From contig CAVXWU010000014.1 of assembly GCA_963765535.1 (NCBI GenBank), positions 391,963 to 455,962 on the forward strand: a stretch of DNA of 64,000 nucleotides, given 5' to 3'. The notes below the pieces were generated by a model, which was not told the origin of the DNA, searched no databases, and saw nothing but the letters and a program-made list of their open reading frames with translations. This stretch comes from an uncultured Verrucomicrobiae bacterium. Its GTDB lineage: Bacteria > Verrucomicrobiota > Verrucomicrobiia > Limisphaerales > JAHDYP01. Below are positions 5,275 to 44,196 of the stretch, in pieces; position 1 is the first letter of the stretch, and each line of letters starts with the position of its first letter. The position numbers and the translations under genes were made by a program.

Positions 5275-6030
5275 ATGAACTTGCCATTAGCGGGAAAAAT
5301 TGCGTTCGTCACGGGGGGAACCCGCGGCATCGGCCGGGCCATCGCACTGAAACTGGCCGAGGCGGGTTGCGACGTCGCCATTCTCTATCATAACAGCCAC
5401 GCCGAAGCCGATTCGCTCTGCGCGGCGCTTCGCGAAATGGGCCGGACGGCCGTGGCCATCCAGGCCGACGTTGGGGATGCACTCAGCCTGGATGAAGCCA
5501 CCACCGCTTTTCGCTCCACGTTCAATCGCGTCGACTTTCTGGTGAGCAACGCGGCCATCGGCGTGTTGCGGCCGACCCTCGAATTAGCCTTGAAACACTG
5601 GCGCCGTTGTCTCGAGACCAATGCCCTGGCACTGAACACCCTGGCGCAACACCTGGTTCCAATCATGGCCCCCGGCGGGCGAATCATCGCCCTCTCCAGC
5701 CTCGGCGCCGCCCGTGCCATCCCGCACTACGCCTTCATCGGGGCCTCCAAAGCCGCCCTCGAATCCCTCGTCCGCAGTCTCGCGCAGGAACTTGGGCCTC
5801 GACGCATCGCGGTGAATGTCGTCAGCGCTGGAGTAGTGGATACGGATGCATTGGCGCATTTCCCAAACCGCGAAGAATTGCTGGCGGAATACGCCCGGCG
5901 GACACCGCTCGGGCCCTCGCTGACCCCCGCCGACGTGGCCAATGCGGTGTACTTGCTCTGCCTGCCCGAAGCGGCCATGATCACCGGCCACACCCTGGTG
6001 GTGGATGGCGGTTACTGTATCTCCGGATGA
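5275..6030 (+). CDS. fabL: SDR-family enoyl-[ACP] reductase, FabL-like
   Basis: 251 aa with TGGTRGIGRAIA (TGxxxGIG), NAAIGVLRPTLELALKHW, Y..IGASKAALE, and DTDALAHFPNREELLAEYARRTPLG. From memory these blocks match B. subtilis FabL (YgaA) closely ([39 protein letters not shown]). Confidence 0.75.
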   Translation: MNLPLAGKIAFVTGGTRGIGRAIALKLAEAGCDVAILYHNSHAEADSLCAALREMGRTAVAIQADVGDALSLDEATTAFRSTFNRVDFLVSNAAIGVLRPTLELALKHWRRCLETNALALNTLAQHLVPIMAPGGRIIALSSLGAARAIPHYAFIGASKAALESLVRSLAQELGPRRIAVNVVSAGVVDTDALAHFPNREELLAEYARRTPLGPSLTPADVANAVYLLCLPEAAMITGHTLVVDGGYCISG

Positions 6031-6791
6031 ACAACCCAACCCTGCTCGATGCCGGCCTGAATGGCGGCGTGGCCATTGTGACGGGAGGCAGTCGCGGCAT
6101 CGGCCGCGCCATTGTCCTGCTCCTGGCGGCCTCGGGCATGGAGGTCGTGTTCACCTATCGCGAGAATGCCACCGCCGCAAACGAAGTGGTCGCCGCGGCT
6201 CAAGACTCCAAAGTCATCGCCGTACCCGCCGATGTGCGCGACGCCTCCTCCTGCTCCACGCTCGTCGAGCAGGTCGTCCAGCGCACCGGCAAACTGGATC
6301 TGCTCGTCAATAATGCCGGCGTGATCCGCGACAATCTCCTGGCCCTCCTCCAGGAACAGGACGTTCGCGATGTCCTCGATACCAATGTGGGCGGCGCCTT
6401 TAACATGTGCCGCGCGGCCGTCCCCCACCTCCTGAGCCAGCGCCGCGGAAAAATCGTGAACATCAGCTCCGTCGCCGGTGAAAAGGGCGGACGCGGCCAG
6501 ACCAATTATGCCGCCAGCAAAGGCGCGATCAACGCCCTCACCCGTTCCCTCGCCGTCGAACTTGCCTCCCGCGGCATCCAGGTCAACGCCGTCGCCCCCG
6601 GCGTGATCGAGACCGAGATGTCCCGCGCCGTCCGCGAGCAAGCCGGGGATCAAGTCCAATCGCGCATTCTCCTGCGGCGGATTGGCCGTCCCGAAGAGGT
6701 GGCTTATGCCGTCTGGTTTCTGGCTTCTAAATATGCCGACTATATCACCGGGCAGGTCTTGCACGTGGATGGCGGTTTCAAAATGGAATGA
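6027..6791 (+). CDS. 3-oxoacyl-[ACP] reductase, FabG-like SDR
   Basis: MNNPTLLDAGLNGGVAIVTGGSRGIGRAI...NNAGV...NISSVAGEKGGRGQTNYAASKGAINALT...: classical SDR. The track ORF starts at 5607, but its first 140 aa overlap fabL out of frame. The ATG at 6027 overlaps the fabL stop (ATGA). Confidence 0.8.
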   Translation: MNNPTLLDAGLNGGVAIVTGGSRGIGRAIVLLLAASGMEVVFTYRENATAANEVVAAAQDSKVIAVPADVRDASSCSTLVEQVVQRTGKLDLLVNNAGVIRDNLLALLQEQDVRDVLDTNVGGAFNMCRAAVPHLLSQRRGKIVNISSVAGEKGGRGQTNYAASKGAINALTRSLAVELASRGIQVNAVAPGVIETEMSRAVREQAGDQVQSRILLRRIGRPEEVAYAVWFLASKYADYITGQVLHVDGGFKME

Positions 6792-7240
6792 TGAAAATGA
6801 CCTACAACCCACCAACCCAAGAGGAAATCATGTCCGTATTTCCCAAGGTCGCTGCCACTATGGCCGACGCCTTGGGATGCGATGTGGAAAAAGTAAAGCT
6901 CAACGCCTCGCTGATCGACGATCTTGGCGCCGAATCCATCGATTTCCTCGACATCGTCTTCCGGCTCGAACGCGCCTTCAAGGTCAAGATCCCGCGCGGC
7001 AAGATCGTCGAGGAATCTCGCGGCGATCTCTCGGAGGCCGAGTTCGAAAGTGGTGGCCACGTTACTGCCGCCGGGCTGGATCGGCTCAAGGCCTATCTCA
7101 GCGAAGTGCCACCCGATCGATTCCCCACACCTCTGCCGGTCGCCCATATCCCGCGGCTCTTCACTACTGAAACATTCTGCAAACTCGTCATCCGCCAACA
7201 ACAGGCCGCCCTCGCCGAATCCGGCGGCCAGCAGTCTTGA
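6788..7240 (+). CDS. Acyl carrier protein with long C-terminal extension (150 aa)
   Basis: The phosphopantetheine attachment motif LIDDLGAESIDFLDIVF (D-x-x-x-S-[IL]-D) lies in the first about 75 aa, followed by an about 75-aa non-ACP tail. The ATG overlaps the fabG-like stop (ATGA). Confidence 0.8.
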   Translation: MMKMTYNPPTQEEIMSVFPKVAATMADALGCDVEKVKLNASLIDDLGAESIDFLDIVFRLERAFKVKIPRGKIVEESRGDLSEAEFESGGHVTAAGLDRLKAYLSEVPPDRFPTPLPVAHIPRLFTTETFCKLVIRQQQAALAESGGQQS

Positions 7241-7256
7241 CCCCCGCTACCGTGGC

Positions 7257-8090
7257 ATGAATCCACACTTCCGCGCATTTTCGTTCGTGGATCAAATCAC
7301 ACGCATGGATCGGGGAGGCGGCGCCCGGGGTCGCTACACCGTCCCCCGACAGATCAATGAATTCCCCATTTCATTGGCTGCCGAAGCGGTGGGACAACTC
7401 GCAGCCTGGGCCGCCATGGCCGCCATGGATTTCAGACTTCGGCCCGTTGCCGGCATCGCCGGAAGAGTGGACTTCTTCGCCCCCATCCTCCCCGGAATGG
7501 TCCTTGAGCTGGCCGCCGACCTCAAAACCGCCGACAGCGATGCGGTCTCCTACGACGGCGATGTCCGCTGCGACGGAGAGGTCCTCGTGCAGCTCGAGAA
7601 TTGTGTCGGGCCCATGGTCCAAGTCCGGGATTTTGATGACCCCGCCGGAGTCCGATCACGGTTCGACTTGCTCTGCGCTGGCGGCGCTCCCCCAGGCGCA
7701 TTCAAGGGCATCCCTGTCATTCCTCTAACCCGGACCGGCGGCGAACCCGGCCGATCCATCACCGCCACTCTCGTTGTCCCCGCCGAAGCGCCATTTTTCC
7801 ACGACCACTTTCCCCGTCGCCCTGTCTTTCCGGGAACGCTTCAAATCCAGGCGAATATCGAACTGGCCTCATGGCTGGCGCGTGAACTCCCGCCGGCGAC
7901 CGACGGAATGGCCTGGAAGCCCCGCAGCGTTACCGATGTCAAGCTGCGGACGTTTATTGCCCCGAACGATCATCTCGAACTCGAAGCCCGTTTATCGGAG
8001 TGCGATGACGTGTCGGCCGTCATCTCCCTGCAAACCCGAAAGATGCGGCGCCTCGCGGGCAGCGCCCGAGTCCTGCTCAAACCGCAATAA
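7257..8090 (+). CDS. Double-hotdog FabA/FabZ-like beta-hydroxyacyl-ACP dehydratase
   Basis: Start chosen at the ATG at 7257 (MNPHFRAFSFVDQI...); the track ORF from 6924 overlaps the ACP gene. The C-terminal half carries FFHDHFPRRPVFPGTL (the HxxxxP..PG dehydratase motif). 277 aa is about two hotdog folds. Confidence 0.7.
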   Translation: MNPHFRAFSFVDQITRMDRGGGARGRYTVPRQINEFPISLAAEAVGQLAAWAAMAAMDFRLRPVAGIAGRVDFFAPILPGMVLELAADLKTADSDAVSYDGDVRCDGEVLVQLENCVGPMVQVRDFDDPAGVRSRFDLLCAGGAPPGAFKGIPVIPLTRTGGEPGRSITATLVVPAEAPFFHDHFPRRPVFPGTLQIQANIELASWLARELPPATDGMAWKPRSVTDVKLRTFIAPNDHLELEARLSECDDVSAVISLQTRKMRRLAGSARVLLKPQ

Positions 8091-8095
8091 AAAGC

Positions 8096-9391
8096 ATGAG
8101 CCCCCGACGCAGGATCGCGATCACCGGCATCGGCATGGTCACACCGGTCGGCAATGACGCGCCCACTTCGTGGCGCAACCTCACTGCAGGTCATAGTGGT
8201 GTCGCCGAAATCGCCAGCTTCGACGCCGGCGGCTTCCCAACCCGCATCGGCGCCGAAGTCAAAAACTTCTATGACCATTCCGCGCTCGATCCTAAACTTC
8301 TCAAATTCGCGTCGCGCGCACACCGCTTCGCCCTCGCCGCAGCCGAGGAGGCCCTGACCGATGCGGGCATTCGGCCTGGTCCCGGCAACTTACAGGATTG
8401 GGGCTGCAGCGTCGGTGCCGGTATGATGGTCGTCGGTTTCGAGGAATTGTCCGCCGTTCACAAATTCTGCGGCGCAGGAGAGGAGTTTCGCCCCGGCGGA
8501 TTGCTCGACCCCGATTTTCCCGTGGATCCTGTGGGGTTCTGTCGCAGCCAGACCAACGCGGGCCTCGCTCTGTTGACCCGTCAGTTTCGCATTGGTGGCT
8601 ATTCGACCGCCGTGCATACGGCCTGCGCGTCGGGCGGCCAGGCATTGGGAACCGCCCTCAAAGTTATGCGCCGCGGCCATGCCCGTTTCATGCTGGCCGG
8701 GGGTTACGACTCCATGCTCAATCCCGTCGGCCTTTCCGGCTTTTGCTTGCTCGGCGCGTTGTCCACGGATAATCAGACCCCCCGGCAAGCCAGCCGCCCC
8801 TTCGATGCGACTCGCAACGGTTTCATTCTGGGCGAAGGCGCCGGCTTTCTGGTCCTGGAAGATTGGGACGACGCGAGAAGACGCGGTGCCCGGATCTATG
8901 CGGAGCTTGCCGGCGACGGCAATTCACTGAGCAGCTATCGCATCACCGACTCTCACCCCTCTGGGGACGGACCGATCCAGGCCATGCGGCAGGCCCTTGC
9001 CGATGCAAACCTCGCCCCGAACGAAATCGATTACGTGAACGCGCACGGAACCTCCACGGTCATGAATGATCGCAGCGAATGTGCCGCTCTCCGCGCGGTC
9101 ATGGGAGATCACATCGATCGCGTCGCCGTGAGCTCTACCAAAAGTTGCATGGGCCACCTCATCGCCGCCGCCGGTGCAGTCGAAGCCGGCGTGTGCGCTT
9201 TGGCGATTCATCACGGGCTCGCGCCTGTGAACGCCAACTATGCCAAAGCCGATCCCAATTGCGCGGTTCATCTCGTGCTCGGGAGTTCCCGGACCATGCC
9301 CATCAGAGCCGCGATCTCTAATTCTCTTGGATTCGGAGGTTCCAATAGCTGTCTCGCCTTCCGCCATCCGGCCCAAGTGCCTGCTCCATGA
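8096..9391 (+). CDS. Beta-ketoacyl-[ACP] synthase (FabF/FabB-type KS)
   Basis: 431 aa with the catalytic triad contexts HTACASGGQALG, NAHGTSTVMND and KSCMGHLIAAAG, and a GFGGSN end. Confidence 0.9.
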   Translation: MSPRRRIAITGIGMVTPVGNDAPTSWRNLTAGHSGVAEIASFDAGGFPTRIGAEVKNFYDHSALDPKLLKFASRAHRFALAAAEEALTDAGIRPGPGNLQDWGCSVGAGMMVVGFEELSAVHKFCGAGEEFRPGGLLDPDFPVDPVGFCRSQTNAGLALLTRQFRIGGYSTAVHTACASGGQALGTALKVMRRGHARFMLAGGYDSMLNPVGLSGFCLLGALSTDNQTPRQASRPFDATRNGFILGEGAGFLVLEDWDDARRRGARIYAELAGDGNSLSSYRITDSHPSGDGPIQAMRQALADANLAPNEIDYVNAHGTSTVMNDRSECAALRAVMGDHIDRVAVSSTKSCMGHLIAAAGAVEAGVCALAIHHGLAPVNANYAKADPNCAVHLVLGSSRTMPIRAAISNSLGFGGSNSCLAFRHPAQVPAP

Positions 9392-10686
9392 ATCCCGCAC
9401 CGCGCATCGTCATCACCGGGATCGGGGCCGTATGCGGCGCCGGCCTCTCGATCGAATCAATCTGGACGAACGCCCTTGCCGGACGCTCCGCCATCCTCCC
9501 CATCCGCCAATGGGATACTTCGGGTTGGCCCGTCAATATCGCGGCCGAAATTTACGGGGTCGACGATCGCACTCTGGTCGAGGATCGCAAACTTCACAAA
9601 ACCATCTCACGCACGGATCTCTTCGGCCTCTACGCCGCGGGGGAGGCCTTCCAGCATTCCGGCATCCTCGAAACTCGGCGCGCACTCGACGAGCCATCCG
9701 CCACCCATTTCAACGACCGAAGCGCCGTATTCGTCGGCTCCGGCGGCGGCGCCTACGAAAGCAATTACGACTTTTTTCCGCTCATGACGGCCGCCCGTGG
9801 CGAACTCCAGCGGTTCGGACGCGAATTATGCGACACCGTGAATCCGATGTGGTTGCTCAAGCATTTGCCGAACAATGTCCTCTGCCATGTCGGCATCCGC
9901 CACGGGTTCAAAGGCACTAATGCCTGTATCACCAACCACTGCGTCGGCGGCGCCCTGGCCGTGGCCGAAGCCGCCAACGCTATCCGGTTTGCCGAGGCCG
10001 ATCGCGCCATCGCTGTCGGCCACGACGCACCCATCGAGCCCGAAACCATTCTCCATTTCCACAACTTGGGCCTGCTCGCTCATGACACGGTCCGATCCTT
10101 TGACCGGGATCGCAGTGGAACGGTCCTCGGCGAAGGCGCAAGCGCAATCCTCCTCGAAAGCGAAGCCGGCGCCACCCAACGCGACGCCAATATTCTCGGC
10201 GAATTCCTCGGCGCCGGATCCGTCACCGAAGCGACCGGTGTCCTCGATGTTCGCGCCGATGGCGATGGGTTGCGCCGAGCCATCGAACTCACCCTGTCCG
10301 ACGCCGGAATGTCTCCCGGCGCCGTCGGAATGATTGTCGCTCACGCCAATGGAACGCGAGCCTCCGACGCCTCCGAGGCCCGCGCGCTACGACAGGTGTT
10401 CGGCGATAATCCGCCACCCGTCACGGCGTTTAAATGGTCTGTGGGTCATCTCATCGCGGCCTCCGGAGTCCTCGACCTGTCCCTCGCGCTGACCTGTCTG
10501 CACCGTGAAATCGTGCCGGGCATTCCCACCCTGCGAGTATTTGACCCCGTTCTTCCCACCTTGCCCGTCTCCGCGTCGGCTCAAAAACCCCGCGCCAATA
10601 CCGCGCTTATCATTTGCCGCGGATTCGGAGGCATGAACGCCGCCCTCATTGTCCGTGCCGGTCCTTCTTCCCGGACTCTCGAATGA
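9388..10686 (+). CDS. Beta-ketoacyl-[ACP] synthase, divergent second KS
   Basis: 432 aa with ITNHCVGGALAVAEA (Cys retained), VAHANGTRASD and KWSVGHLIAASG (both His retained), and a GFGGMN end. The start ATG overlaps the upstream stop (ATGA). Confidence 0.8.
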   Translation: MNPAPRIVITGIGAVCGAGLSIESIWTNALAGRSAILPIRQWDTSGWPVNIAAEIYGVDDRTLVEDRKLHKTISRTDLFGLYAAGEAFQHSGILETRRALDEPSATHFNDRSAVFVGSGGGAYESNYDFFPLMTAARGELQRFGRELCDTVNPMWLLKHLPNNVLCHVGIRHGFKGTNACITNHCVGGALAVAEAANAIRFAEADRAIAVGHDAPIEPETILHFHNLGLLAHDTVRSFDRDRSGTVLGEGASAILLESEAGATQRDANILGEFLGAGSVTEATGVLDVRADGDGLRRAIELTLSDAGMSPGAVGMIVAHANGTRASDASEARALRQVFGDNPPPVTAFKWSVGHLIAASGVLDLSLALTCLHREIVPGIPTLRVFDPVLPTLPVSASAQKPRANTALIICRGFGGMNAALIVRAGPSSRTLE

Positions 10687-11939
10687 ACCCTCCCCAGGGA
10701 ACCCGCTGTGGAATCGACACGGTCGAAATCCAGCGCATCGAAAAACTGCTGGCCTACAAAACCGACGACGAATTGACCCGGCTCTTCGCCGAAACCGAAC
10801 TCAAAGACTCCGGCTCATCGGCAGGCCGTCTGGCCAGCCTCGCCGCCCGGTTCGCCGCCAAGGAAGCTTGCTGCAAGCTCTTCCCGCGCGAGACCTCGCT
10901 GGGCATCCTCCAACCCGCTGACTTCGTCATTGAACGGTCAGGCTACGGCGAGCCGCAAGTGCGCCCCAATCCACGAGCCCAGATGGTCCTGGATCGAAAT
11001 CGGATTGCTGCGATTCGTCTCTCACTCACCCATACCGAAGCCACCGCGTCGGCCATCGCCTGGGCAGAACCCCATTCCACTTTCGTTCCATGGTTCGGCC
11101 TCGTCTGCTTCCATCTCCTCCCTTTCCGAAAGCGCCTCATCCTGTCCAACCTGCGTCGCGTGTTCGCGGACGTGGCGTCTGAACTCGAGATTCGGCGTCT
11201 CGCACAAGCCTCCTATGCCCATTTCATTCGCTGTTTGATCGAAATGGTCCGGTTGCCCTTCATGTCCCGGCAAAAACGTAACGCCTGGATCCGGATCGAG
11301 AATATCCAGTCCCCCCTCCAGGCCCATCAACAGGGCAAAGGCATCCTCCTCTTGACCGGTCACTTCGGTAACTGGGAAGTGGCCACGGTCGCCGGCCTGG
11401 GCCAGTTCCCCCAATACCGAGGTCTCCTTCACTTCCTGCGGCGCCCGCTTAAACCCTCCTGGTTCGACGCCCTGATCACCTGGCGCTTTCGAAAAGCCGG
11501 ATTCGGCACACTCGCAAAACGTGGTTCCATGGATCGAATCCTCGATCTCCTGGCCCATGGTGCGGTCATTGTGTTCACCATGGATCAACACGCCGGCAAA
11601 CCAGATGGTATCCCGGTCGATTTTTTGGGCTACCCTGCCGGAACGTTTAAAAGCCTCGCCATCCTCGCTCTCAGCACCGGCGCGCCGGTCATCCCCGCCT
11701 GCAGTTGGCGCGAACCCGATGGCGCCCATGTCCTCCACTTCGAGGATCCGCTCCCGCTCGTCGAATGCGACGACGCCGGCGAGGCGATCCGCACAAACAC
11801 GCGGGCCTTCAACCTCGCGCTCGAAAAGATGCTGCTCCGGCACCCGGAACAATGGATCTGGATGCACCGTCGATGGAAATTCAACCCCGCCCCGGCGAAG
11901 CCGACCACCAGGCATTGCGCCTCTCCCCCTTCGGATTGA
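10683..11939 (+). CDS. Fusion protein: holo-ACP synthase (AcpS-type PPTase) + LpxL/HtrB-family lipid A-type acyltransferase
   Basis: The N-terminal about 130 aa read CGIDTVEIQRIEKLL...LAARFAAKEACCKLF...RLSLTHTEATASAIAWAE (AcpS pattern). The C-terminal about 285 aa read LPFRKRLILSNLRRVF...GKGILLLTGHFGNWEVA...FTMDQHAG... (the HFGNWE motif of lauroyl/myristoyl acyltransferases). Start at the ATG at 10683 overlaps the KS stop (ATGA); the track start at 10614 is inside the KS gene. Confidence 0.75.
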   Translation: MNPPQGTRCGIDTVEIQRIEKLLAYKTDDELTRLFAETELKDSGSSAGRLASLAARFAAKEACCKLFPRETSLGILQPADFVIERSGYGEPQVRPNPRAQMVLDRNRIAAIRLSLTHTEATASAIAWAEPHSTFVPWFGLVCFHLLPFRKRLILSNLRRVFADVASELEIRRLAQASYAHFIRCLIEMVRLPFMSRQKRNAWIRIENIQSPLQAHQQGKGILLLTGHFGNWEVATVAGLGQFPQYRGLLHFLRRPLKPSWFDALITWRFRKAGFGTLAKRGSMDRILDLLAHGAVIVFTMDQHAGKPDGIPVDFLGYPAGTFKSLAILALSTGAPVIPACSWREPDGAHVLHFEDPLPLVECDDAGEAIRTNTRAFNLALEKMLLRHPEQWIWMHRRWKFNPAPAKPTTRHCASPPSD

Positions 11940-11995
11940 TCCCTGCCCGCGGGAAACGTTAACGCCAACGCGTTTCTTCCGCAGTCGTGGAGCGA

Positions 11996-12325
11996 TCAAG
12001 GATTCGAGCTGGAATTCGAAGTCCCAACTTCCGTCTCGCTTGCAGGTGGCGTATCCGTCTGCTGCCCTTGAGACCTCAGAACAGCGTCTGCAATCGTCGT
12101 AACATTCTGCAAAATAGCCTGTGCCGCGGCCGGATCCGGGATTTTGAGCCCGTATTGTTTGTCCAAAGCGACGACTAATTGCAGGGCGTCGACTGAGTCC
12201 AATCCAAGCCCCTCAGGGCCGAACAAACTTTGGTCATCCCGAATATCGGCAGACGTAATTTGTAGCATCAGATTCTCAGCCAGAAGTTTTTTGATCTGCT
12301 CTTTGAGCGTCGCCTGGTTCTCCAT
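11996..12325 (-). CDS. Acyl carrier protein (second ACP of the cluster)
   Basis: 109 aa with GLGLDSVDALQLVVALDKQYG (the DSxD/L attachment motif) and a short Ser/Thr/Pro-rich tail. Confidence 0.85.
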   Translation of the reverse strand: MENQATLKEQIKKLLAENLMLQITSADIRDDQSLFGPEGLGLDSVDALQLVVALDKQYGLKIPDPAAAQAILQNVTTIADAVLRSQGQQTDTPPASETEVGTSNSSSNP

Positions 12326-12453
12326 ATTTTCTTGTTACTATTCGCCACCGATATTGCCGGCGAGAGGGTGTGACAGTCTGCCGCTCCGCGACAAGCCATA
12401 AATCGAACCACCTGTTCCGCGCAAAGTGACTCGTCAGGGCCGGCGTCATGCTC

Positions 12454-13467
12454 TCAAATCTGTTGGAGGCGAATGCCGGAAGCCTGTTGGTTGCAGCCCA
12501 CCAGGCTTATCGTTGCCGCCCGATGCACGTCCCTGCCCAACATGTCCGCCGCCGCAACCACCTGCCACAGCGCGGCCGCCGCCAGGGCTTCGCCCAATAC
12601 GTTCTTCGGTGATATCCTCGGGCCGGACCAATCCTGCCACACCCGCGCCTCGGCGCCATCGACCCGTGGGGCTCCTTGCCCGCCGTCACATAACATTTCT
12701 CCCGAGCCCATGGCGGGAAGTTCCGCGCGCATTCGTTGACTGCAGGTCTCTCGCGACAATTCGCGCCGATAGAGATGCGGGGAAGCGATCGCGGCGACCA
12801 TAGTGCCACCCCCGGAGTTACGATCGAGCTCGAGATACAATGCCCCGGCGCCTTCGGATAGCACGACGCGGCGGGAAAACATGCCCATCGCGTCTGCCAT
12901 CATCCAATCGAGTTCTTCGGCGCCAATCACCAGGCAGCCTTCCACCTCACCCTCAAGCAGCCAGTCTACCGCGATGGCCATTCCGACCCCTACCGATCCT
13001 TGATCCCCAATGAGGGTGTAGTTCGGGCCGGCGGAATTCAACAGCGCGGCCAGGTGACTGCCAGAAGCGTTGAAGACTGTCTCGGGGAATAACAGTGGGC
13101 TCGCCAATGCCGGCTGGTGCAGTATCTCATCGTAGAACCGGCCCGTGTACCTTACGCAGCCGCACATCGTGCAAATGACGATGCCTAGCCGCATGGCGCC
13201 CTCCACGACGGGTAACCGATGCTCTCCCAGGGCCTCCAGCGCCGCGCCGACCACAAATTGGGCGATGGGTGGAGACCTGCGCAGACGAGCATCGGCGAGG
13301 AAGGCCGGCCGTGGCACCGGCGACGGGACTCGTCGAACCGACAAAGGGCGCGAGGCGCCCGGCCGGGCCAGGTCTTGCGCCGGTGCTGGTTCACCACTTG
13401 TGATGGCCTCTCTCAGACACTCGACCCCCCAACCCGCCGGACTTACCGCGCCAATGCCCCTGATCAT
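12454..13467 (-). CDS. KS-like protein lacking the active-site Cys and both His (chain-length-factor / KS-beta-like)
   Basis: MIRGIGAVSPAGWG...NYTLIGDQGSVGVGMAIAVDWL...: by eye, a Gln sits where the ACxSG Cys is expected, and there are no HGTGT or GHxxGAAG motifs. Start at the ATG at 13467, or a GTG at 13479 overlapping the upstream stop. The track start at 13752 overlaps the KS gene. Confidence 0.7.
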   Translation of the reverse strand: MIRGIGAVSPAGWGVECLREAITSGEPAPAQDLARPGASRPLSVRRVPSPVPRPAFLADARLRRSPPIAQFVVGAALEALGEHRLPVVEGAMRLGIVICTMCGCVRYTGRFYDEILHQPALASPLLFPETVFNASGSHLAALLNSAGPNYTLIGDQGSVGVGMAIAVDWLLEGEVEGCLVIGAEELDWMMADAMGMFSRRVVLSEGAGALYLELDRNSGGGTMVAAIASPHLYRRELSRETCSQRMRAELPAMGSGEMLCDGGQGAPRVDGAEARVWQDWSGPRISPKNVLGEALAAAALWQVVAAADMLGRDVHRAATISLVGCNQQASGIRLQQI

Positions 13468-13475
13468 GACTCGTC

Positions 13476-14717
13476 TCACAAACAACTCCGGAAAACCAGG
13501 CTGGCGTTGGAACCGCCAAAGCCAAAGGAATTCGAAAGCACGGCCCGAGAGGTCGCCGAACGCGGCCGAGTAACCAGTTCGAATTGACATGCGGAATCGA
13601 CCGTCTCGGTGGTGACCGTTGGTGGCAGGAATCCTTCGCGCAACGCCATGATACAAACGACCGCCTCCACAGCGCCGGCCGCACCCAGCAAATGGCCCAC
13701 GCTGGATTTCGTCGAGCTTACCGCCAATGTCCGCGCTCGCGCGCCGGCCCATCGGTTAATGGCCGATGCCTCGGCCGAATCATTCAGCACGGTGCCCGTC
13801 CCATGTGCATTCACATAGTCGATGTCGGCCGGCCCGAGGGCTGCCCTTTCGCACGCCATTTCCATCGCGGCCAAAGCCGCGGTTCCTTCCGGGTGCGGCT
13901 GGGTCAAGTGATGAATATCTGTCGCCATGCCATATCCCGCCACCACCCCAAGGATCTCCGCCCCGCGACGCCGCGCGCTGTCCGCCGTTTCCATGGCCAG
14001 GACCGCAGCACCCTCGCCCAGACCCAAACCGTCCCGGCTCGCGTCGAATGGCCGACAACGGGTGGGTGAGAGCGCCTGCAGCACGTCGAATCCGGCAAAG
14101 GTTACTTCCGCGAGGGCGTCATAGCCGCCGGCGAGCACCCGCTCTGCCCGGCCCATTCGAAGGAGCGACCAACCATGTCCGATCGCATTGGCCCCCGATG
14201 CGCAGGCGTTTGAGATGATGGTGATAGGTCCGGAGAATCCAAACGCGTCGACAATATCCAGTGCCTGGCGTTGAGCCTGGTAATGCGTCACCCGGACGGG
14301 TTGACCGCGAAACCGCGTCGGGGTAGCCAGGGCCTGGCGGTAATAAGCTTCGCCTAAGGTCATCCCGGCGCCAGTGGTTCCCAGAACCAGCGGCAGCGCC
14401 TCCGACGGTTCCCAACCCGACTGTCGCCATGCCTCTTCCGCCGCCAGCAACAATATGCGCGCCCCGCGATCCATGCGTCGGATCTGCCGGGCATTGAGCC
14501 GGGTCGCCGGCATGTCTTTCGGTAGATCGATTTCCGCCGCTTCCTTCACTCGCCGACCTGAGACGTCCAACAAAGTCACCGGCCGAAAACCCACTTGACC
14601 GGCGCGGAAACCGTCCAGGTTCTTCACCCAGCCTATTCCCAGTGCGGTCACCACTCCCACGCCCGTCACAACAATCGAGTCGCCCGGGGCGTTGGATGGA
14701 GGTAACGGAAAAAGCAC
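13476..14717 (-). CDS. Beta-ketoacyl-[ACP] synthase (FabF/FabB-type KS)
   Basis: 413 aa with ISNACASGANAIG, NAHGTGTVLND, KSSVGHLLGAAG and GFGGSNASLVF. Confidence 0.9.
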   Translation of the reverse strand: MLFPLPPSNAPGDSIVVTGVGVVTALGIGWVKNLDGFRAGQVGFRPVTLLDVSGRRVKEAAEIDLPKDMPATRLNARQIRRMDRGARILLLAAEEAWRQSGWEPSEALPLVLGTTGAGMTLGEAYYRQALATPTRFRGQPVRVTHYQAQRQALDIVDAFGFSGPITIISNACASGANAIGHGWSLLRMGRAERVLAGGYDALAEVTFAGFDVLQALSPTRCRPFDASRDGLGLGEGAAVLAMETADSARRRGAEILGVVAGYGMATDIHHLTQPHPEGTAALAAMEMACERAALGPADIDYVNAHGTGTVLNDSAEASAINRWAGARARTLAVSSTKSSVGHLLGAAGAVEAVVCIMALREGFLPPTVTTETVDSACQFELVTRPRSATSRAVLSNSFGFGGSNASLVFRSCL

Positions 14718-14818
14718 GAGGATGGATTTCGGTTAGCGAGACCTTAAAAGACCCGGCGGTCCGCCGTCAAACCCGTCCGTGAAAGGCATCGGCCTTGCCA
14801 GAAGAGCGGGATCGAATA

Positions 14819-15424
14819 TCAGTCCACCCGGTTGATTTTGAGGTCGGTCTTCAGGACCTTTCCGTCCTCGGCGGAGATGAGAACTTCGCCGATATTCACC
14901 TGGCGATTGGGGTGATCCAATTTAGCCGCCCAAAGCTTCACGTGCCAGACGGGCAGACGGTCATCACCCTGCCCATCGTCGCCCGCCCGATCCAGTTCCA
15001 ATTCGCTCGCCTTGATCGTCAACCGATCCAGCAAGGGCTCCTTCAACGCAATCTCGATGGCCCGATCCGAATCGACCTTAAGTCGTGCCCGGTCGAGCAC
15101 GGCGTTGCCCCCTCCGATCTTCTCGAAAAGACGCATCGGCCGTTTGACATCGAGTTTCTTCCCTGCGCCAAACTTGACCTCGGTGGTATCAAAGCTCGCA
15201 TCGGCATCGTAATAGACCACATACCAGATGTTCGGGATCACACCACCCACGGACTTCTGCGAACGGATCTGCACCACTTTATCCTTGGATTCGATGCCAA
15301 CATATTGATTGCCTTGCTCGATCAACTGGAACGCCGTCGGCTCCTCTGCCGCCGTAACGGCTTGCACCAGGATCCCGCCCAGGGCCATAGCCCATAACCA
15401 ACCCAATCCTATTGGTTTAATCAT
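14819..15424 (-). CDS. Exported hypothetical protein
   Basis: 201 aa with an N-terminal signal-like segment (MIKPIGLGWLWAMALGGILVQAVTAAEEP). No motif I can name with confidence; it has two loosely similar halves. Confidence 0.6.
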   Translation of the reverse strand: MIKPIGLGWLWAMALGGILVQAVTAAEEPTAFQLIEQGNQYVGIESKDKVVQIRSQKSVGGVIPNIWYVVYYDADASFDTTEVKFGAGKKLDVKRPMRLFEKIGGGNAVLDRARLKVDSDRAIEIALKEPLLDRLTIKASELELDRAGDDGQGDDRLPVWHVKLWAAKLDHPNRQVNIGEVLISAEDGKVLKTDLKINRVD

Positions 15425-15503: not shown

Positions 15504-16166
15504 TCAATCCCGAGACTCAATTTCGGCTTCGGCATCCGACAACGACCCGGGATAAATGGCGGCGGACAACTCCCCCCGTCGAATCAACTCTTGCAGATCG
15601 CGAATGATTGTCCTCCGCGCCACCCGGAATTGCCGGGCTAATGCCGATATGTTGGGACGTTCGCCCGAGGGTCCGATGATTTCCCGGATCTGCGTCTGCC
15701 GGCTCAAACGGTCGGTTGAACGACTGAGCAGCTCCTGCACATCGACGCGCTTGGAACGTTCCAGGGCGCTGAATTGCCGTACGACTTCCGCCTCTCCACA
15801 CTCGGCCAGCGCCGTATCGACCGTTCGGGCCAACAGCTCCAGGTCGACCGGTTTCACGATCACGTAGTGTGCCCGCCGCGGGCCTTGCAGCGCGCTGATC
15901 TGCTGCTGCGCCTCCAATGCGCCGGACACGACGATCACCGGCACATAGGGAAGCAGCATCCGGAACTCCCCCAGGTAATCGAGCCCCTGTTCACCGTGCG
16001 CCAGGATGTGATCCAGAATGATGAGGTGCGGCTGGATCTGGGCGATACGCTTCAGCGCGTCGCTCGCCGTGCTGGTGCGAATCAACTCGTGATGTCCCAG
16101 CGCCTCCTCATAAAGCTCGTACTGCAGGTCGTCGTCCTCAATAATCAGGATCCGCGCAGCATTCAT
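15504..16166 (-). CDS. Response regulator (REC domain) with C-terminal HTH
   Basis: ILIIEDDD...LIILDHIL...VIVVSG...VKP is the REC pattern with phospho-acceptor Asp context. The C-terminal ISALARQFRVARRTIIRDLQELIRRGEL is HTH-like. Confidence 0.85.
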   Translation of the reverse strand: MNAARILIIEDDDLQYELYEEALGHHELIRTSTASDALKRIAQIQPHLIILDHILAHGEQGLDYLGEFRMLLPYVPVIVVSGALEAQQQISALQGPRRAHYVIVKPVDLELLARTVDTALAECGEAEVVRQFSALERSKRVDVQELLSRSTDRLSRQTQIREIIGPSGERPNISALARQFRVARRTIIRDLQELIRRGELSAAIYPGSLSDAEAEIESRD

Positions 16167-16227
16167 GGTTCAGCAGACAGTGTAGCCGCTTCTCGTCCGT
16201 AGTGAAGCCATTAAATGCTCACTGCCA

Positions 16228-16562
16228 TTGCGCACTTCGGCTGGGCCGGAAAGGTCAGCGCCGACGCACGTCGGCGGCTACCCCACTCCGTAGCCGCGCT
16301 CGTGAGAGCGCGCTGACCTGGGGATTGCGGGGCCGTGCTCCTCATGTTGGTCGAGCAGAATAATTATGGAGCCCTGCTTCGGATAATCATCCTGCCCAAG
16401 AATCATTCTGCCGCTCCCCTCGCTTACACGGATCGCTCACGCCGATGTGGCAGGATGATTGTGGGCAGAATGATTGGGAAACTTTGCTTCAGGTCATGAT
16501 TCTGTCACTCCCCGGTTGCGCACTTCGTTTCCGCCGGAACGTCGGCGACTACCCCACTCCCG
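16228..16562. repeat. Composite intergenic repeat cluster between sensor kinase and response regulator genes
   Basis: Direct repeat blocks: TTGCGCACTTCG (16228-16239, 16516-16527) and CGTCGGCG[G/A]CTACCCCACTCC (16269-16290, 16540-16562). Six copies of a GCAGRAT[G/A/C]AT unit in both orientations: 16355-16366(+), 16385-16396(-), 16400-16412(-), 16449-16460(+), 16464-16475(+), 16494-16506(-). Nested GC hairpins: CCGACG-CA-CGTCGG and GGTCAGCGC...GCGCTGACC. Confidence 0.7.
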
Positions 16563-16648
16563 TGCGGTATCAAGAAATCCACCTCCTCGCCCGACAGCCG
16601 CACCCGAGGTTGCCAGTCTTCGCCGCCACGTGTCGCGACCCGCGCCGT

Positions 16649-19600
16649 TCAACTCGTCGAGACCGGCGCCATTCCGCGTTGCCGTGGCACAACGAGGCTG
16701 AAAGTCGATCCTTGTCCCGGCTGCGATTCGAGACGAAGCCCTAAGCCGAGTTCCTTCGCGATTTCGTAGACCATACTCAAACCCAGGCCGGTCCCTCGAC
16801 GGGTCGAGAAGGCTTTGGTGGTAAAGAAAGGCTCAAACACCCGCGATTGGATCTCCGCCGGAATACCGTGCCCTCGGTCCACCACGTCGATTCGGACATA
16901 AGCATCCGCGGGCGCCGGCGCCAACACCATGTCCGCCGGTGGCGAAAGAATAGTCCAAACGTTGAGCCGGATCACACCTTCACCGCCACTGGCCTCGAGG
17001 GCATTGAACACCAGATTCAAGAGTACTTGCCGGACCATGGCCGCCACGGTCAGGACCGGAACGGGCTGGGAGGGGACTTCACACTCGATGGTGGCTCGCG
17101 ATCCGGTCTGATCGCCAACCAGGCGCACCGTTTCCGTCACCAACTGGCTCAAGTCGCACGTCTGCATTGCGAGCGCGGTGCCGCGACTGAATCCGAGCAT
17201 GGCTTGCACAATGCCGCTCCCTTGTTCGACCATGGTCTTGATGCGACTCACCCGGGTCCGGATCCGCTCCTGGTCGTCGGGGTGATGTTCGATAATCTGG
17301 GCCGATCCTTTGATGATCGAGAGGATGCTGTTGAAATCATGGGCGATCCCCGCCGCGAGGGTTCCCAAGGCCCGCATCTTCTGGCTGTGGAGCAATTCCC
17401 GGTTCGCCTCCTGCAACTCCCGGGTGCGCTGCTCGACTATTCTCTCGACCTCGGTGTGACTCCGCCGCAGCCGAAGATGCCGATTGACCGCCAACCACGT
17501 CAGAAACCCCGCAACCAACAATCCTCCGCCTGCCACCACCACGATCCGCGGCTCCGCATACCAGGGCACAAAGGCCACAAACTCCCAGACCGCCGGTTCC
17601 AGTTCTTCATTTCGATTGCGATCCATCGCGCGCACTGCCAACCGATGCTCGCCGGCGGTCAGGTTGGTGAGAACCGCCACACTGGCTTCTTCGAATGGGG
17701 TCCACATGCCCTCGTTGAGTCGATGGCTGTAGACCAGCCGCTCCGCCGGGGTGTAGTTCCATTTATCGCGAGCGGCATAGTGCACGGTAAACTGCCGCGT
17801 CGTCGGCGTTTGTCGCGGGGTATCGACCGCAAAGTAGCTGGAGGGTTCGTCGAGATCCGCTTCCCGGTAATACCTCAGCAATCCCCCGGCGGTCGCGGCG
17901 TACACCGCGCCGTCCTGGTCTGGCAGGACATCTTTGACCGCGCCCGGGGGAAATCCTTCTTGCGATCCATATCCCAGCCAGGCCCGGTCGGCATAGGACC
18001 ATAACCCGGCTTCGCTTGCCACCCACACCGTCCCGTCACGAGCGCCCCGCAAAGAGTGGATCCGTCCGAACCCGGTCCTCAGCACCTGCCACGAACGCCC
18101 ATCGTACTCGACGATGGTCCCTTCCCCGCCAAACCAAATCCTCCCACCGGCCACGGCCAGGATGGCGTACATTGTTCCACCCGGCGCGCCGGGAACGGCC
18201 GCAAATTGACCCAGTCCGGGTTCCCAGACCGTGAGTCCATTGGTCCGCGCCATCCAAAGCCGGTTGCCGGCGGTACCATCCACAAAGACCACATCGTCCA
18301 ACGAGACCTCGCTCGATCGATCCTCTGGCCATCGGGTGAAGCGGCTACCGTCGAATACCTCCATCCGTCGATTCCCCTCCTGATCTGCCGTCTCGAGGAA
18401 AACGGCGCCCGGCCGATAGACTCCCAGCACGCCGATAATTGCCCTCCCCTCGGGATGTTCCACAGATTGAAACCGCTCGCTGTTGAGGTCGAAGATCAGC
18501 GGCCGCTTCTTGTCACTCGCGATCAATACCTGCTGACCTTCCAGCCACTGCACCAACCGCGATGCCTGCCCCGAAGGAGTGAAACCTGCCGGCCAACTCC
18601 ACGTTCGCCATTGCCCATCCCTCAGAAGATAAAGCGCGTCCGGCGACACCATCCACACCCCCACCCCGCGCTGTTCCACCATACCCAGGACGTCCAGGGA
18701 GGCATGACCCATTCCCGGCGGCCGGCGCCAGGTCTCGGGGGCATGCCGCACCAACCCCTCCGAAGTCGCCAGCCAATACACACCGCCCGGTTCGAACGCG
18801 GCATCTATAATTTGAGCCCGGGGCAATCCCGGGATCGCCACTGGACGCCATTGATCATCCGGACTCGATTCATAAAGCGTCCCCTTGGCTTGGGCCAAAA
18901 GCCGGCCACCGAGTCCGTTCCATGCCGCTCGTGTCCCTTCCGGCGCGGGTTTTGGGGGTTGCCAATCTTCGCCATCGAACACCAGGATCACGCGCTGTTC
19001 GTCCAGTGCCTGCTCCCCCACAACGACCAGGTTACCTGCGTCATCCTCCACGGGACGCGTCAACCCGGATAACCCCCATCCCTCGTTAACCAAGTGCTCG
19101 GGCCAGGGTGTCTCGGGCGCCAGCATTCGTATGGGCCCGGCCAGGCGGGTTACTCCCCGCAACCCGGTGATCCACACCCCGCCATCGCGAGACTCGGCGA
19201 TGTCCGTAAACTCGCCCAGATGCGTCGTCGCCGCCGAACGGAGTTGTTCCACTCGAGCCGAGGCGGGGTTCACCTTGATGAGAGCCTGGGAAAGGAGCAC
19301 GAGGACATGATCCCTTTCTGCCGGGAGCAATGGGATCGATCTTACCGCCCGCATGGTATTCGTCTGATGTTCGTCCCGGATGCCATCGACCGGATACACG
19401 ATCCATTCATCGCGTTTGAATTCCGCCAGCCCCACCTTGTTCAGCGACCAAACCTGACCCGACCTGCTCTCCCAAACCGGGAACCGGTTTTCCTCCATAC
19501 CCGGAATCACCCGCGCCTGGTATCCATCCAGCATTCCTACCGAGGCCGTCCCGGGATGTCGAATCCAGACGTGACCCCGCGGACTAACGGTTACCGACAG

Positions 19601-25596: not shown

Positions 25597-25778
25597 TTTC
25601 ATTGATCGCCTCGCGCGCGCCTTTTCGATCCCAGGCTTCCATGCCCACGCTTGCCTTTTTCCATCGCGTGAGGGATATCTGCAGGCAAGTTGTGCCTTCG
25701 CCGGCGTGGAAAACAGCTCAGTGGTCCCGGACATCGAAGGATGGTGGCTTCACCGCGATCAGGTTCGATCGCGGTTTG

Positions 25779-27804: not shown

Positions 27805-27826
27805 CCACGCTCACGGCCGTCGATTA

Positions 27827-38000: not shown

Positions 38001-38115
38001 CAGGCCGAACGTAGAACTGCGCGACTGCCGCCGGAAACGCAAGCTTGAGCGTCAGCGGCGCGTTCGAATTGACGCCTCGCGTCAAGCGGAGAGGCGGGGC
38101 GGCAGTTCGTCTGCC
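38001..38115 (-). repeat. attC-like imperfect palindrome 4 (upstream of the hicB cassette)
   Basis: Gene orientation: GCAGACGAACTGCCGCCCCGC...TTGACGC-GAG-GCGTCAA...GCGTTTCCGGCGGCAGTCGCGCAGTTCTACGTTCGGCCTG. Both ends are nearly identical to site 2 over about 20 and about 35 nt, while the centre differs. Confidence 0.5.
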
Positions 38116-44186: not shown

Positions 44187-44196
44187 GCGGGGAGAT

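Follow-up and report, generated by a model that had tools for sequence, protein, structure and literature searches.

Two convergent gene modules in a Verrucomicrobial genome: a putative analogue of the rhizobial acpXL-lpxXL system and a separate ketosynthase/chain-length-factor unit

The region from 5275 to 15424 of the window (the whole 64-kb stretch of DNA that was analysed) consists of two separate conserved gene modules lying tail to tail, as seen from synteny and domain content. Modules A and B converge with a gap of 57 bp and are independent of each other, an observation made as directly as those on domains, motifs, synteny and taxon distribution. We hold with moderate confidence to the explanation as a whole, in which module A is an AcpXL/LpxXL analogue acting on lipid A and module B is a separate unit. 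We found no published characterisation of the modules in the literature.

A preliminary description of this DNA had read the region as a single, expanded relative of the rhizobial locus, which is right only in part, since the region falls into two modules that do not belong to a common cluster. The ten genes and domains that it had listed were recovered at the same positions when open reading frames and Pfam matches were re-examined. They are real genes and not chance reading frames, with Pfam E-values from 1e-7 to 1e-68 and plus-strand colinearity in relatives. Also in the window are kdsB and lpxD, both outside the plus-strand operon, as had been reported. The features are as follows.

Module A, 5275-11939, plus strand: seven genes, G1-G7
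G1, 5275..6030, plus strand: enoyl-ACP reductase of the FabL type, 251 aa (NCBIfam NF005975, PF13561)
G2, 6027..6791, plus strand: 3-oxoacyl-ACP reductase of the FabG type, 254 aa (TIGR01830, NF009466)
G3, 6788..7240, plus strand: dedicated ACP, 150 aa (PF00550 at residues 20-73)
G4, 7257..8090, plus strand: pseudo-dimeric double-hotdog 3-hydroxyacyl-ACP dehydratase, 277 aa (PF07977, hhalign)
G5, 8096..9391, plus strand: condensing ketosynthase (KS) of the FabF type, Cys-His-His, 431 aa (TIGR03150, 417.8 bits)
G6, 9388..10686, plus strand: divergent partner KS, 432 aa, full-length, with ATGA overlaps on both sides
G7, 10683..11939, plus strand: AcpS-type 4'-phosphopantetheinyl transferase (about residues 1-130) fused to an LpxL/PatA-type acyltransferase (about 137-400) (PF01648 and PF03279)
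Module B, 11996-15424, minus strand: secreted 201-aa protein, KS, Gln-type chain-length-factor KS and ACP
G8, 11996..12325, minus strand: ACP, 109 aa (PF00550, 9.8e-8; DSV serine motif)
G9, 12454..13479, minus strand: KS-beta/chain-length-factor (CLF) type, 337-341 aa, with Gln at the catalytic Cys position
G10, 13476..14717, minus strand: condensing KS, Cys-His-His, 413 aa (PF00109 and PF02801; TIGR03150, 353 bits)
Fourth gene of module B, 14819..15424, minus strand: secreted 201-aa protein with a signal peptide and faint PepSY similarity, absent from the preliminary description

Module A and the rhizobial acpXL-lpxXL locus

Of the 80 related loci compared with module A, 62 have room for seven genes, and in 57 of these 62 all seven genes are colinear (22 in Verrucomicrobiota and 35 in Burkholderiales or others, the Burkholderiales carriers being Casimicrobiaceae). 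The module is thus common to two phyla, at 52-66% identity, and we propose that it has been shared horizontally. ATGA overlaps are present at 6027 (the start of G2 within the stop of G1), 6788, 9388 and 10683, as originally described, and join four of the six operon junctions; they are not strictly consecutive, since G3/G4 and G4/G5 are spaced by 16 bp and 5 bp.

G1 scores 321.4 bits against the FabL family NF005975, below its cut-off of 328 (PF13561, 3.6e-66), carries the Y-x6-K motif of its SDR type (HYAFIGASK, read from the translation), and is 57-79% identical to its orthologues across related loci. G2 matches TIGR01830 at 273 bits and NF009466 at 241 bits (cut-off 222), has a Y-x3-K motif, and shares 45% identity with the housekeeping FabG of a Casimicrobiaceae carrier, L069. 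In G3, about 60 aa follow the ACP core as an extension or insertion, which is conserved across 58 orthologues. This protein lies below every NCBIfam cut-off for AcpP, its top PDB match is 2kw2, a 'specialized ACP', and in BLAST comparisons it is closer to Sinorhizobium AcpXL (55 bits) than to AcpP (43.5 bits); of the characterised ACPs, the AcpXL type is the nearest. Pfam recognises a FabA/FabZ hotdog in G4 at residues 167-251 only. However, the N-terminal half aligns with the C-terminal half in hhalign (97% probability, E 8e-11), and G4 is therefore a true double hotdog. Its His motif (FFHDHFPRRPVFPG) is found in the C-terminal half only, and the Glu-bearing helix (AEAVGQLAAW) in the N-terminal half only.

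Both KS proteins of the operon are full-length. In G5, Cys177, His317, Lys349 and His354 are kept in all true orthologues. In G6, His319, Lys349 and His354 are invariant in the ortholog alignment. At position 185, that of the nucleophile, the window protein and its Verrucomicrobial orthologues carry Cys, and the Burkholderiales orthologues carry Ser, in rare cases Gly, Val or Thr. Since the nucleophile is dispensable in half of the orthologues, G6 is probably a priming decarboxylase or chain-length subunit; as Cys-His-His is intact in the window, it may itself condense here, as a second true condensing enzyme.

The fusion protein G7 has more than 3000 homologues, and precomputed Pfam matches show the same fusion in 118 of the top 120 listed. 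D12, K60 and E61 of the AcpS domain are invariant, as is H227-x4-E232 of the acyltransferase. In an AF2 model (pLDDT 79), the first domain matches AcpS with a TM score of 0.8, and the acyltransferase is closer to PatA (0.68-0.72) than to LpxM (0.61-0.63). The acyltransferase domain matches PF03279 (Lip_A_acyltrans) at 141.7 bits and remains under all NCBIfam cut-offs (best 129.7 bits versus 248). It is 26% identical to LpxXL and 25% to E. coli LpxL, with LpxM and PatA about equally distant (only about 40 bits by phmmer; 20-26% identity over the modelled fold). It has the PF03279 fold and the invariant H-x4-E dyad in common with LpxL, LpxM, LpxP and PatA. Unlike LpxL-type enzymes, G7 has an AcpS domain in place of the N-terminal membrane helix, and its predicted donor is a private ACP and not AcpP or CoA.

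In rhizobia, acpXL-fabZXL-fabF(1/2)XL-(adhA2XL)-lpxXL is responsible for the very-long-chain acylation of lipid A (PMC5613085). The proposed likeness in core order, ACP-DH-KS-KS-acyltransferase, holds against a genuine locus of this kind (L086, Sinorhizobium sp. M103): in both, a dedicated ACP comes first, then a FabZ-type dehydratase, two KS and finally a PF03279 acyltransferase, and both pair an active KS with a divergent one, the Sinorhizobium partner lacking the Cys and the first His. G4 is 35% identical to Sinorhizobium FabZXL. However, only module A has its own enoyl reductase, ketoreductase and fused AcpS, its ACP has 150 aa with the conserved extension, its dehydratase is a fused double hotdog, and it lacks the Zn-alcohol dehydrogenase of the rhizobial cluster. 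The hosts also differ, being Verrucomicrobiota and Casimicrobiaceae as opposed to Alphaproteobacteria. Orthology was considered and rejected: G5 scores higher with housekeeping FabF (288 bits) than with the Sinorhizobium XL KS (197 bits), G6 reaches no more than 41 bits with the Cys-less partner of the XL system, and G7 is as distant from LpxXL as given above. Module A is, judging from these comparisons, a separately arisen analogue and not an orthologue.

Proposed function of module A and its acceptor lipid

We suggest that module A works as an autonomous type II system for fatty-acid elongation that also includes the enzyme for off-loading the chain. In G7, the AcpS domain would convert apo-G3 to holo-G3. 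We infer the sources of both primer and malonyl groups; malonyl loading would fall to the cell's own FabD, since module A has no such gene. G5 would then condense together with G6, presumably as a heterodimer, and G2, G4 (with a single active site) and G1 would carry out full reduction in each round to yield a saturated acyl-G3. Chain length is likewise a matter of prediction, and nothing points to a very long chain. Finally, the H-x4-E domain of G7 would attach the chain to an envelope lipid, at a hydroxyl group. By analogy with AcpXL/LpxXL in Rhizobiales, the acceptor is most likely a secondary, acyloxyacyl position of lipid A.

It is possible, though we consider it less likely, that module A acylates another envelope lipid, such as a lysophospholipid, glycolipid or aminolipid. 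PF03279 includes PatA, a PIM acyltransferase and the best structural match to G7, and G7 is without LpxL's N-terminal membrane anchor, its Pfam match starting from profile position 44, after the AcpS domain. The near-equal distance of the acyltransferase domain from LpxXL, LpxL, LpxM and PatA, the last not a lipid A enzyme, also tells against lipid A. Burkholderiales carriers would be expected to have an ordinary LpxL already. Furthermore, accessory genes recur upstream of the operon in both phyla. In many loci these encode a PapA5/condensation-like protein and a GxSxG-bearing lipoprotein; neither is a known lipid A enzyme, and both might speak for a different lipid. If module A did act on another lipid, the PapA5-like acyltransferase, the lipoprotein and an ICMT-like methyltransferase seen in other genomes would help to make a new lipid class.

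Several observations argue against another lipid and for lipid A. In nine Burkholderiales loci a gene of the type of LpxO, a lipid A hydroxylase, lies downstream of the G7 orthologue on the same strand, starting within 160 bp of it in eight (about 1.1 kb in L078). This gene is near-threshold for NF033391 (454 bits, cut-off 500) and reaches only 110 bits against OlsC. The linkage is limited to related Casimicrobiaceae and may reflect a single ancestral event. Among the closest relatives of the acyltransferase domain by sequence are an LpxK::acyltransferase fusion and tandem double-acyltransferase proteins, the characterised ACP nearest to G3 is specific to lipid A, and the operon was seen in LPS-bearing phyla only. 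Upstream of the operon there is often an ICMT-family methyltransferase; the family includes the lipid A methylase LmtA, but similarity to LmtA itself is faint (15.8 bits).

Module B and its relation to module A

Module B appears to be a minimal unit of KS, Gln-type CLF and ACP with a conserved secreted partner. The active-site motifs of G10 are intact, and its stop overlaps the start of G9 (GTGA, 13476-13479). G9 has lost both His residues, and its C-terminal KS domain is not recognised by Pfam. About 4000 G9 homologues were found, and those with a source name are Verrucomicrobial; directly upstream of each homologue examined is a G10 orthologue of 411-413 aa. At the position of G8, four loci (L084, L085, L090 and L091) encode ACPs of 78-107 aa. 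The secreted protein has no family match above threshold; however, its counterpart beside the trio is 69% identical in L084 and 59% in L085, and two further module B contexts have a protein of 194-200 aa in the same position. The KS/CLF/ACP trio is thus conserved on its own in Verrucomicrobia and occurs in other surroundings, and its adjacency to module A is confined to this lineage. Like a minimal type II PKS, module B couples the translation of an active KS to that of a Gln-type KS-like protein, with an ACP following. Module B differs in the short G9 without both His and without a C-terminal KS domain visible to Pfam, in having no cyclases or aromatases, in the extra secreted partner, and in its Verrucomicrobial host.

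The claim that the trio expands the plus-strand operon into one cluster, in which it would supply a starter or second chain, is very unlikely and is largely refuted by synteny. The modules do converge, 57 bp apart in the window, and both are widespread among Verrucomicrobia. Module B here is also without the SDR ketoreductase present in other copies, and could therefore borrow G2. However, the trio is not within 10 kb of the operon in any of the 80 related loci. In the closest relative (78% identical) it is absent, with cupin and sigma-70 genes at its position, and in the Burkholderiales carriers that were examined the operon has no module B beside it. Among the examined module B copies with long flanks, the closest (L084, 67% identical) is also ketoreductase-less, and it adjoins an ABC transporter instead of module A.

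Aryl-polyene, housekeeping and ladderane-type systems

It is extremely improbable that the region represents an aryl-polyene (APE) cluster or another highly reducing type II PKS pigment cluster. It does share the general parts list of the E. coli CFT073 reference (apeA-apeR, L089), namely two ACPs, a KS/CLF pair, a ketoreductase, a dehydratase and an LPLAT-family acyltransferase. In addition, G8 and G10 give sub-threshold matches to NF006617 and NF006618, and other module B copies lie near FAD halogenase-like, methyltransferase, AMP-ligase and MMPL::LPLAT genes. However, there is no specific sequence kinship with the Ape proteins: in BLASTP searches against all 18 CFT073 Ape proteins, G7 had no match to ApeD and G9 none to ApeC, and the KS proteins resemble FabF more than they do ApeO or ApeR. 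Unlike the APE cluster, the region includes an enoyl reductase, so that the chain would be saturated, and its parts lie in two unlinked modules. It also lacks APE-type genes for aryl starter activation, thioesterase, glycosyltransferase and export, the window having no ligase, thioesterase, glycosyltransferase, LolA or MMPL gene. The rejection of this class in the preliminary description is upheld by the missing ApeD and ApeC matches and these absent genes.

That the plus-strand operon is the organism's housekeeping fatty-acid synthase has a negligible probability: G5, G2 and G1 resemble FabF, FabG and FabL, and the 64-kb window shows no further fab genes, but the operon lacks fabD, fabH, acc and plsX, has an atypical ACP under all AcpP cut-offs, is coupled with an LpxL-type acyltransferase fusion, recurs in two phyla at the identity given above, and coexists in one carrier, L069, with a separate canonical plsX-fabH-fabD-fabG-acpP-fabF set 2-7 kb away, which agrees with the original view of a dedicated lipid-chain module.

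The candidate ladderane cassette of anammox bacteria, kuste3603-3606, encodes an ACP, FabZ, FabF and a non-canonical FabF (PMC4790861), and antiSMASH 'ladderane' calls have been reported to be enriched in Verrucomicrobia and to occur in Streptomyces as well (PMC7298704). Module A has the same ACP-DH-KS-divergent KS order, a likeness in gene order alone, but no radical-SAM or desaturase genes lie in or beside it. As a lead, module A may be what antiSMASH labels 'ladderane'. We observed ACPs with the G3 extension on Streptomyces plasmids, and G3-type ACPs next to KS pairs in exactly these two groups, Verrucomicrobia and Streptomyces.

Two adjacent modules and their separate distribution

All ten genes that a preliminary description had listed in this region were found as placed when we mapped ORFs, examined the translations and scanned them against Pfam and NCBIfam, and the ATGA overlaps at 6027, 6788, 9388 and 10683 were found as well.

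Genes of module A (G1 to G7) and module B (G8 to G10), by window position
G1, 5275-6030, plus strand: SDR enoyl reductase, FabL equivalog score 321 bits (cut-off 328), Y-x6-K spacing as in enoyl reductases
G2, 6027-6791, plus strand: FabG-type ketoreductase
G3, 6788-7240, plus strand: ACP, 150 aa
G4, 7257-8090, plus strand: dehydratase, 277 aa
G5, 8096-9391, plus strand: ketosynthase (KS), full-length
G6, 9388-10686, plus strand: ketosynthase, full-length
G7, 10683-11939, plus strand: AcpS domain fused to a PF03279 (LpxL-type) acyltransferase
G8, 11996-12325, minus strand: ACP
G9, 12454-13479, minus strand: KS-like protein, GTGA overlap with the G10 stop
G10, 13476-14717, minus strand: KS

Upstream of G1 lie kdsB, pyrG and a folC-like gene, and past G10 come a gene for a secreted protein of 201 aa, then a response regulator gene and a histidine kinase gene. 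The remainder of the window consists of housekeeping genes, including a single lpxD. A promoter and terminator scan of 5-16.5 kb gave counts at chance level.

The ten genes had been described as one expanded cluster resembling the rhizobial acpXL-lpxXL locus. That interpretation holds in part: a dedicated module with acpXL-like order is present, but the single expanded cluster is not. In a scan of species-representative genomes, we obtained 80 loci related to module A, of which 62 have room for all seven genes, and in 57 of these 62 the seven plus-strand genes are all present and colinear. Twenty-two of the colinear loci belong to Verrucomicrobiota (Limisphaerales, Chthoniobacterales and Verrucomicrobiales/Akkermansiaceae), and the other 35 to Burkholderiales-type MAGs, chiefly Casimicrobiaceae, at 52-66% identity. 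The G7 fusion has more than 3000 homologues, and those named among the best 120 (65-78% identity) are Verrucomicrobial; a protein of this type is also present in a cultured Alcaligenaceae species, Zwartia panacis (WP_290238083.1). G8-G10 were found within 10 kb of module A in none of the 80 loci, and in the five other contexts that we read, the KS-G9-ACP unit occupies a different genomic site. The closest relative (78% identity) keeps kdsB-pyrG-folC-G1 to G7, followed by cupin and sigma-70 genes. The region is thus two modules, A (5275-11939) and B (11996-15424), rather than one cluster, and since the two are separate elsewhere, their side-by-side placement in the window is a lineage-specific accident. 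Further genes that recur beside the operon (fmt, pyrH, frr, pheT, a sulfatase and an S9 peptidase) were considered as LPS genes and rejected, as they are housekeeping genes instead.

Module B has the parts of a minimal type II PKS, namely a KS-alpha with Cys-His-His (G10), a KS-beta with Gln in place of Cys (G9), an adjacent ACP (G8) and GTGA coupling. Since cyclases and aromatases are absent, this likeness is one of architecture only and does not place the module in the aromatic-polyketide family. G9 has approximately 4000 homologues, and those with a named source are Verrucomicrobial. The five other contexts usually have an SDR gene between G9 and the ACP, which the window's lineage has lost, and often lie near FAD-dependent halogenase-like and methyltransferase genes. 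A protein of ~194-201 aa accompanies module B in four of the five (not L090), and that of the window is 59-69% identical to its counterpart in the two contexts compared. Directly upstream of module B (15504-19744, minus strand) are the response regulator, with receiver and HTH domains, and the 1031-aa histidine kinase, with Reg_prop beta-propeller repeats; because such a pair also flanks module B in L084, another of these contexts, it is a possible dedicated regulator. In L090, a Verrucomicrobial contig, a 1116-aa MMPL::Lip_A_acyltrans fusion is encoded from 17017 onward, 7 kb from the module B copy, and recalls the ApeM/ApeD export-anchoring pair.

Membership of the window genes in an aryl-polyene cluster, which the preliminary description had also rejected, is excluded by several findings together. 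We compared all 18 proteins of the E. coli CFT073 ape cluster with the window proteins by BLASTP (E <= 0.01), and at this threshold G7 had no match to ApeD and G9 none to ApeC, while the KS proteins of the window are nearer to FabF than to the ape-cluster KS. The window has a FabL-type enoyl reductase, whereas the aryl-polyene cluster has no enoyl reductase, and no aryl-starter ligase, thioesterase, glycosyltransferase or LolA/MMPL gene was found between 1 and 23 kb of the window.

Parts of module A and how they could work together

In G7, residues 1-130 form the AcpS domain and the Pfam match begins at profile position 44, so that the AcpS domain stands in place of the N-terminal membrane helix that is usual in LpxL, LpxM and LpxP. 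The acyltransferase scores 141.7 bits on PF03279 (cut-off 22.3) and has the H-x4-D/E dyad of late acyltransferases, and it remains below the curated equivalog cut-offs (at best 129.7 against 248 for NF006270, and 92.6 against 297.8 for TIGR02207). Residues D12, K60 and E61 of the AcpS half are invariant, as is the dyad H227-x4-E232 of the acyltransferase (H227 and E232 in 22 sequences), and this conservation indicates that both halves are active.

The remaining subunits also have features of their own. G3 carries an extension of ~60 residues past the ACP core, which is kept in 58 orthologues. G4 is an internally duplicated hotdog protein (hhalign 97%) with the His motif in the C-terminal half only and the Glu-bearing central helix in the N-terminal half only, so the two halves together provide one complete FabZ-type active site. 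In G5, Cys-His-His-Lys is kept in all true orthologues. In G6, the two His and the Lys are invariant among orthologues; as nucleophile, the Verrucomicrobial proteins, that of the window among them, have Cys, and those of Burkholderiales have Ser (rarely Gly, Val or Thr). This pattern is less in keeping with a second obligatory condensing enzyme than with a partner subunit that makes the primer by decarboxylation or sets the chain length, and such a role would account for the missing FabH.

We propose that the AcpS domain would activate G3, that the host's FabD would load malonate, that G5/G6 would elongate the chain together with G2, G4 and G1, and that the acyltransferase domain of G7 would off-load it. 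A fully saturated chain is expected, as the module includes a ketoreductase, a dehydratase and a FabL-type enoyl reductase. Module A was also considered as the housekeeping type II FAS and rejected, as it is without fabD, fabH and acc and its G3 falls below all AcpP cut-offs. A separate housekeeping fab set was present in a Casimicrobiaceae locus (L069), whose operon is followed, 2-7 kb downstream, by a canonical plsX-fabH-fabD-fabG-acpP-fabF cluster; the window covers 64 kb only of its own genome.

Relation to AcpXL/LpxXL and possible link to 'ladderane' clusters

In rhizobia, the product of the AcpXL/LpxXL system is an (omega-1)-hydroxy C26-C30 acid on lipid A. VLCFA-modified lipid A is defined by a cluster of acpXL, fabZXL, two fabF-XL genes and lpxXL (PMC5613085). 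We located a genuine copy in Sinorhizobium sp. M103 (L086, 4326-9765): it was reached through AcpXL, which G3 matches best in this 3.5-Mb record and whose gene lies 5 kb from the best match to G7 there, and a direct tblastn search brought out the locus. The five-gene set (ACP, FabZ-type dehydratase, two KS and LpxL-type acyltransferase) is clustered there in the order of G3-G7, as ACP-DH-KS-KS-(ADH)-acyltransferase, which bears out the shared core order given in the preliminary description. The first KS-like protein of Sinorhizobium is without the Cys and the first His, and is therefore also a degenerate partner. The record itself (NZ_CP104127.1), labelled a plasmid, is evidently a chromosome, and its gene for the active XL ketosynthase (L086, 6478-7888) is apparently frameshifted near 7340. 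A match from a plasmid collection (H14) was rejected as an acpXL cluster site, since it is an unrelated LPLAT with no KS nearby.

With Sinorhizobium AcpXL, G3 reaches 55 bits, compared with 43.5 for housekeeping AcpP, and its best PDB match is the 'specialized ACP' 2kw2, by a small margin (39.9 bits, with the next ACP at 38.0); judged by its sequence, 2kw2 is plainly an AcpXL orthologue. On NF005079, G3 reaches 46 bits (cut-off 83), and its ~60-aa extension is additional to AcpXL. The enzymes are not orthologous to their rhizobial counterparts. For G5, housekeeping FabF (288 bits) is a better match than the active XL KS (197 bits), and G6 also matches FabF best (154 bits), followed by the active XL KS (116 bits) and, far lower, the Cys-less XL protein (41 bits). 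G7 is 26% identical to LpxXL (68 bits), which is no better than its identity to E. coli LpxL (25%). Therefore, module A is an analogue of separate origin, to which an enoyl reductase, a ketoreductase and a PPTase are added relative to the rhizobial cluster. Overall, we regard module A as a real, widespread, previously uncharacterised and horizontally shared module, whose working would be AcpXL/LpxXL-like and which stands outside that family.

Similar arrangements have been noted elsewhere. A survey of soil MAGs found antiSMASH 'ladderane' clusters, of unknown function and earlier seen in Streptomyces, to be enriched in Verrucomicrobia (PMC7298704), and the anammox candidate cassette kuste3603-3606 consists of ACP, FabZ, FabF and a non-canonical FabF (PMC4790861), in the same gene order as G3-G6. 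On Streptomyces plasmids, we found G3-type extended ACPs beside AcpS and a pair of KS and Cys-less KS. Module A may plausibly be what the 'ladderane' surveys flagged. Among the open-access papers searched, we found none characterising the operon, the AcpS::LpxL fusion or a Verrucomicrobial VLCFA system. One of the Streptomyces loci (L088; Streptomyces sp. NBC_01003, plasmid NZ_CP108708.1, record positions 118142-131278) has an ACP with a G3-like C-terminal extension (37% identity over 115 aa); the genes after it encode AcpS and then four ketosynthase-type proteins, namely a KS, a Cys-less KS in which Asp replaces the Cys, one of 788 aa and one like KSIII. It is flanked by genes for an acyl-CoA carboxylase, FabD, an AKR, an FAD monooxygenase and an ester cyclase, and belongs to an unassigned type II PKS-like cluster on linear plasmids.

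The acceptor of the acyl chain and its implications

Whether lipid A is the acceptor of G7 is, in our estimate, close to an even call. Indirect evidence in its favour comes from 9 of the 40 Burkholderiales loci with downstream sequence, in which the G7 orthologue is followed by a co-oriented LpxO-type gene, at a distance of 160 bp or less in eight of them and of ~1.1 kb in L078. The score of this gene is 454 bits with the LpxO equivalog model (cut-off 500) and 110 bits with OlsC.

Casimicrobiaceae-type loci with an LpxO-type gene (lipid A hydroxylase)
L029, L030, L033, L038, L039, L046, L052, L071, L078

Further points in favour of lipid A come from a search of 1.8 billion proteins for relatives of the G7 acyltransferase domain. 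The closest include stand-alone acyltransferases of ~290 aa (37-46% identity) and a 713-aa fusion (P0383) of LpxK (tetraacyldisaccharide 4'-kinase) with an LpxL-type domain, 34% identical to that of G7; several proteins of ~600 aa with tandem PF03279 domains are also close relatives. In addition, a membrane methyltransferase of the ICMT family, which includes the Leptospira lipid A methylase LmtA, is frequently encoded upstream of the operon, with a faint match to LmtA.

The acceptor could instead be another envelope lipid, to which we assign a smaller, though substantial, probability. PatA, a PIM acyltransferase, lies no further from the G7 acyltransferase than the lipid A acyltransferases do, and genes for a PapA5/condensation-like protein and a GxSxG lipoprotein, neither of them known as a lipid A enzyme, recur upstream in both phyla. 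In many loci of both, these two (the lipoprotein without a family match) and an ICMT/PEMT-family methyltransferase precede the seven-gene core on the same strand, as in L014 (1280-4483) and L018 (495-4547). A rough count of ORFs in loci long enough to hold the PapA5-like gene finds it in 7 of 18 from Verrucomicrobia and in 19 of 34 from Burkholderiales. The PapA5-like, lipoprotein, ICMT-like and LpxO genes had no match in the window. The AlphaFold model of G7 (pLDDT 79) superposes on AcpS (TM ~0.8) and on PatA/LpxM (TM 0.6-0.7), which confirms both domains, and since the PDB fold search did not separate PatA-like from LpxM-like, the model is uninformative on the acceptor. The ornithine-lipid OlsH/OlsI pathway, considered because of a faint NCBIfam ACP match, was rejected, as OlsH is GH3-like and OlsI an alpha/beta-hydrolase, and neither is in the window.

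A possible, if doubtful, overall picture is that module A is a transferable envelope-lipid factory with its own PPTase, carrier, full reduction cycle and transferase, which moved between Verrucomicrobiota and Burkholderiales. The acyl chain that it might place on lipid A, or on an undescribed outer-membrane lipid of a phylum among the most abundant in soil and fresh water, would be unusual and possibly very long or altered by accessory enzymes (PapA5-like, ICMT-like and LpxO-type), and the module might be the true identity of the Verrucomicrobial 'ladderane' BGC calls. It would then be an independently evolved counterpart of AcpXL/LpxXL in Rhizobiales.

Verrucomicrobiota are abundant in soil, water and guts and, to our knowledge, almost nothing is known of their envelope lipids. 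Module A is probably a second, independently assembled way of doing what AcpXL/LpxXL does in Rhizobiales, with all that it needs, the PPTase included, packaged for horizontal transfer. From a dedicated acylation module of such wide occurrence, one would expect a specific change to lipid A or another outer-membrane lipid, and this change would affect membrane rigidity, stress tolerance and innate immune recognition. The genome-mining labels 'ladderane' and 'arylpolyene' may conceal envelope-lipid modules in these phyla, and the cultured carrier Zwartia panacis makes module A experimentally tractable.

Some other features of the window were observed. Genes at 24019-29806 encode a radical SAM protein that binds B12 and carries DUF4080, a pair of ABC-2 exporter proteins and a sulfatase with C-terminal HEAT repeats. 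On the minus strand, 40080-41822 encodes a pseudouridine synthase fused to a SAM-dependent methyltransferase; on the plus strand, 55346-57463 encodes an HlyD-type membrane-fusion protein with C-terminal EF-hand motifs, adjoining an outer-membrane efflux protein. The GC skew is positive at 38001-50000 and negative elsewhere; the positive stretch coincides with a run of minus-strand genes at ~39.3-50.1 kb and not with an obvious replication landmark.
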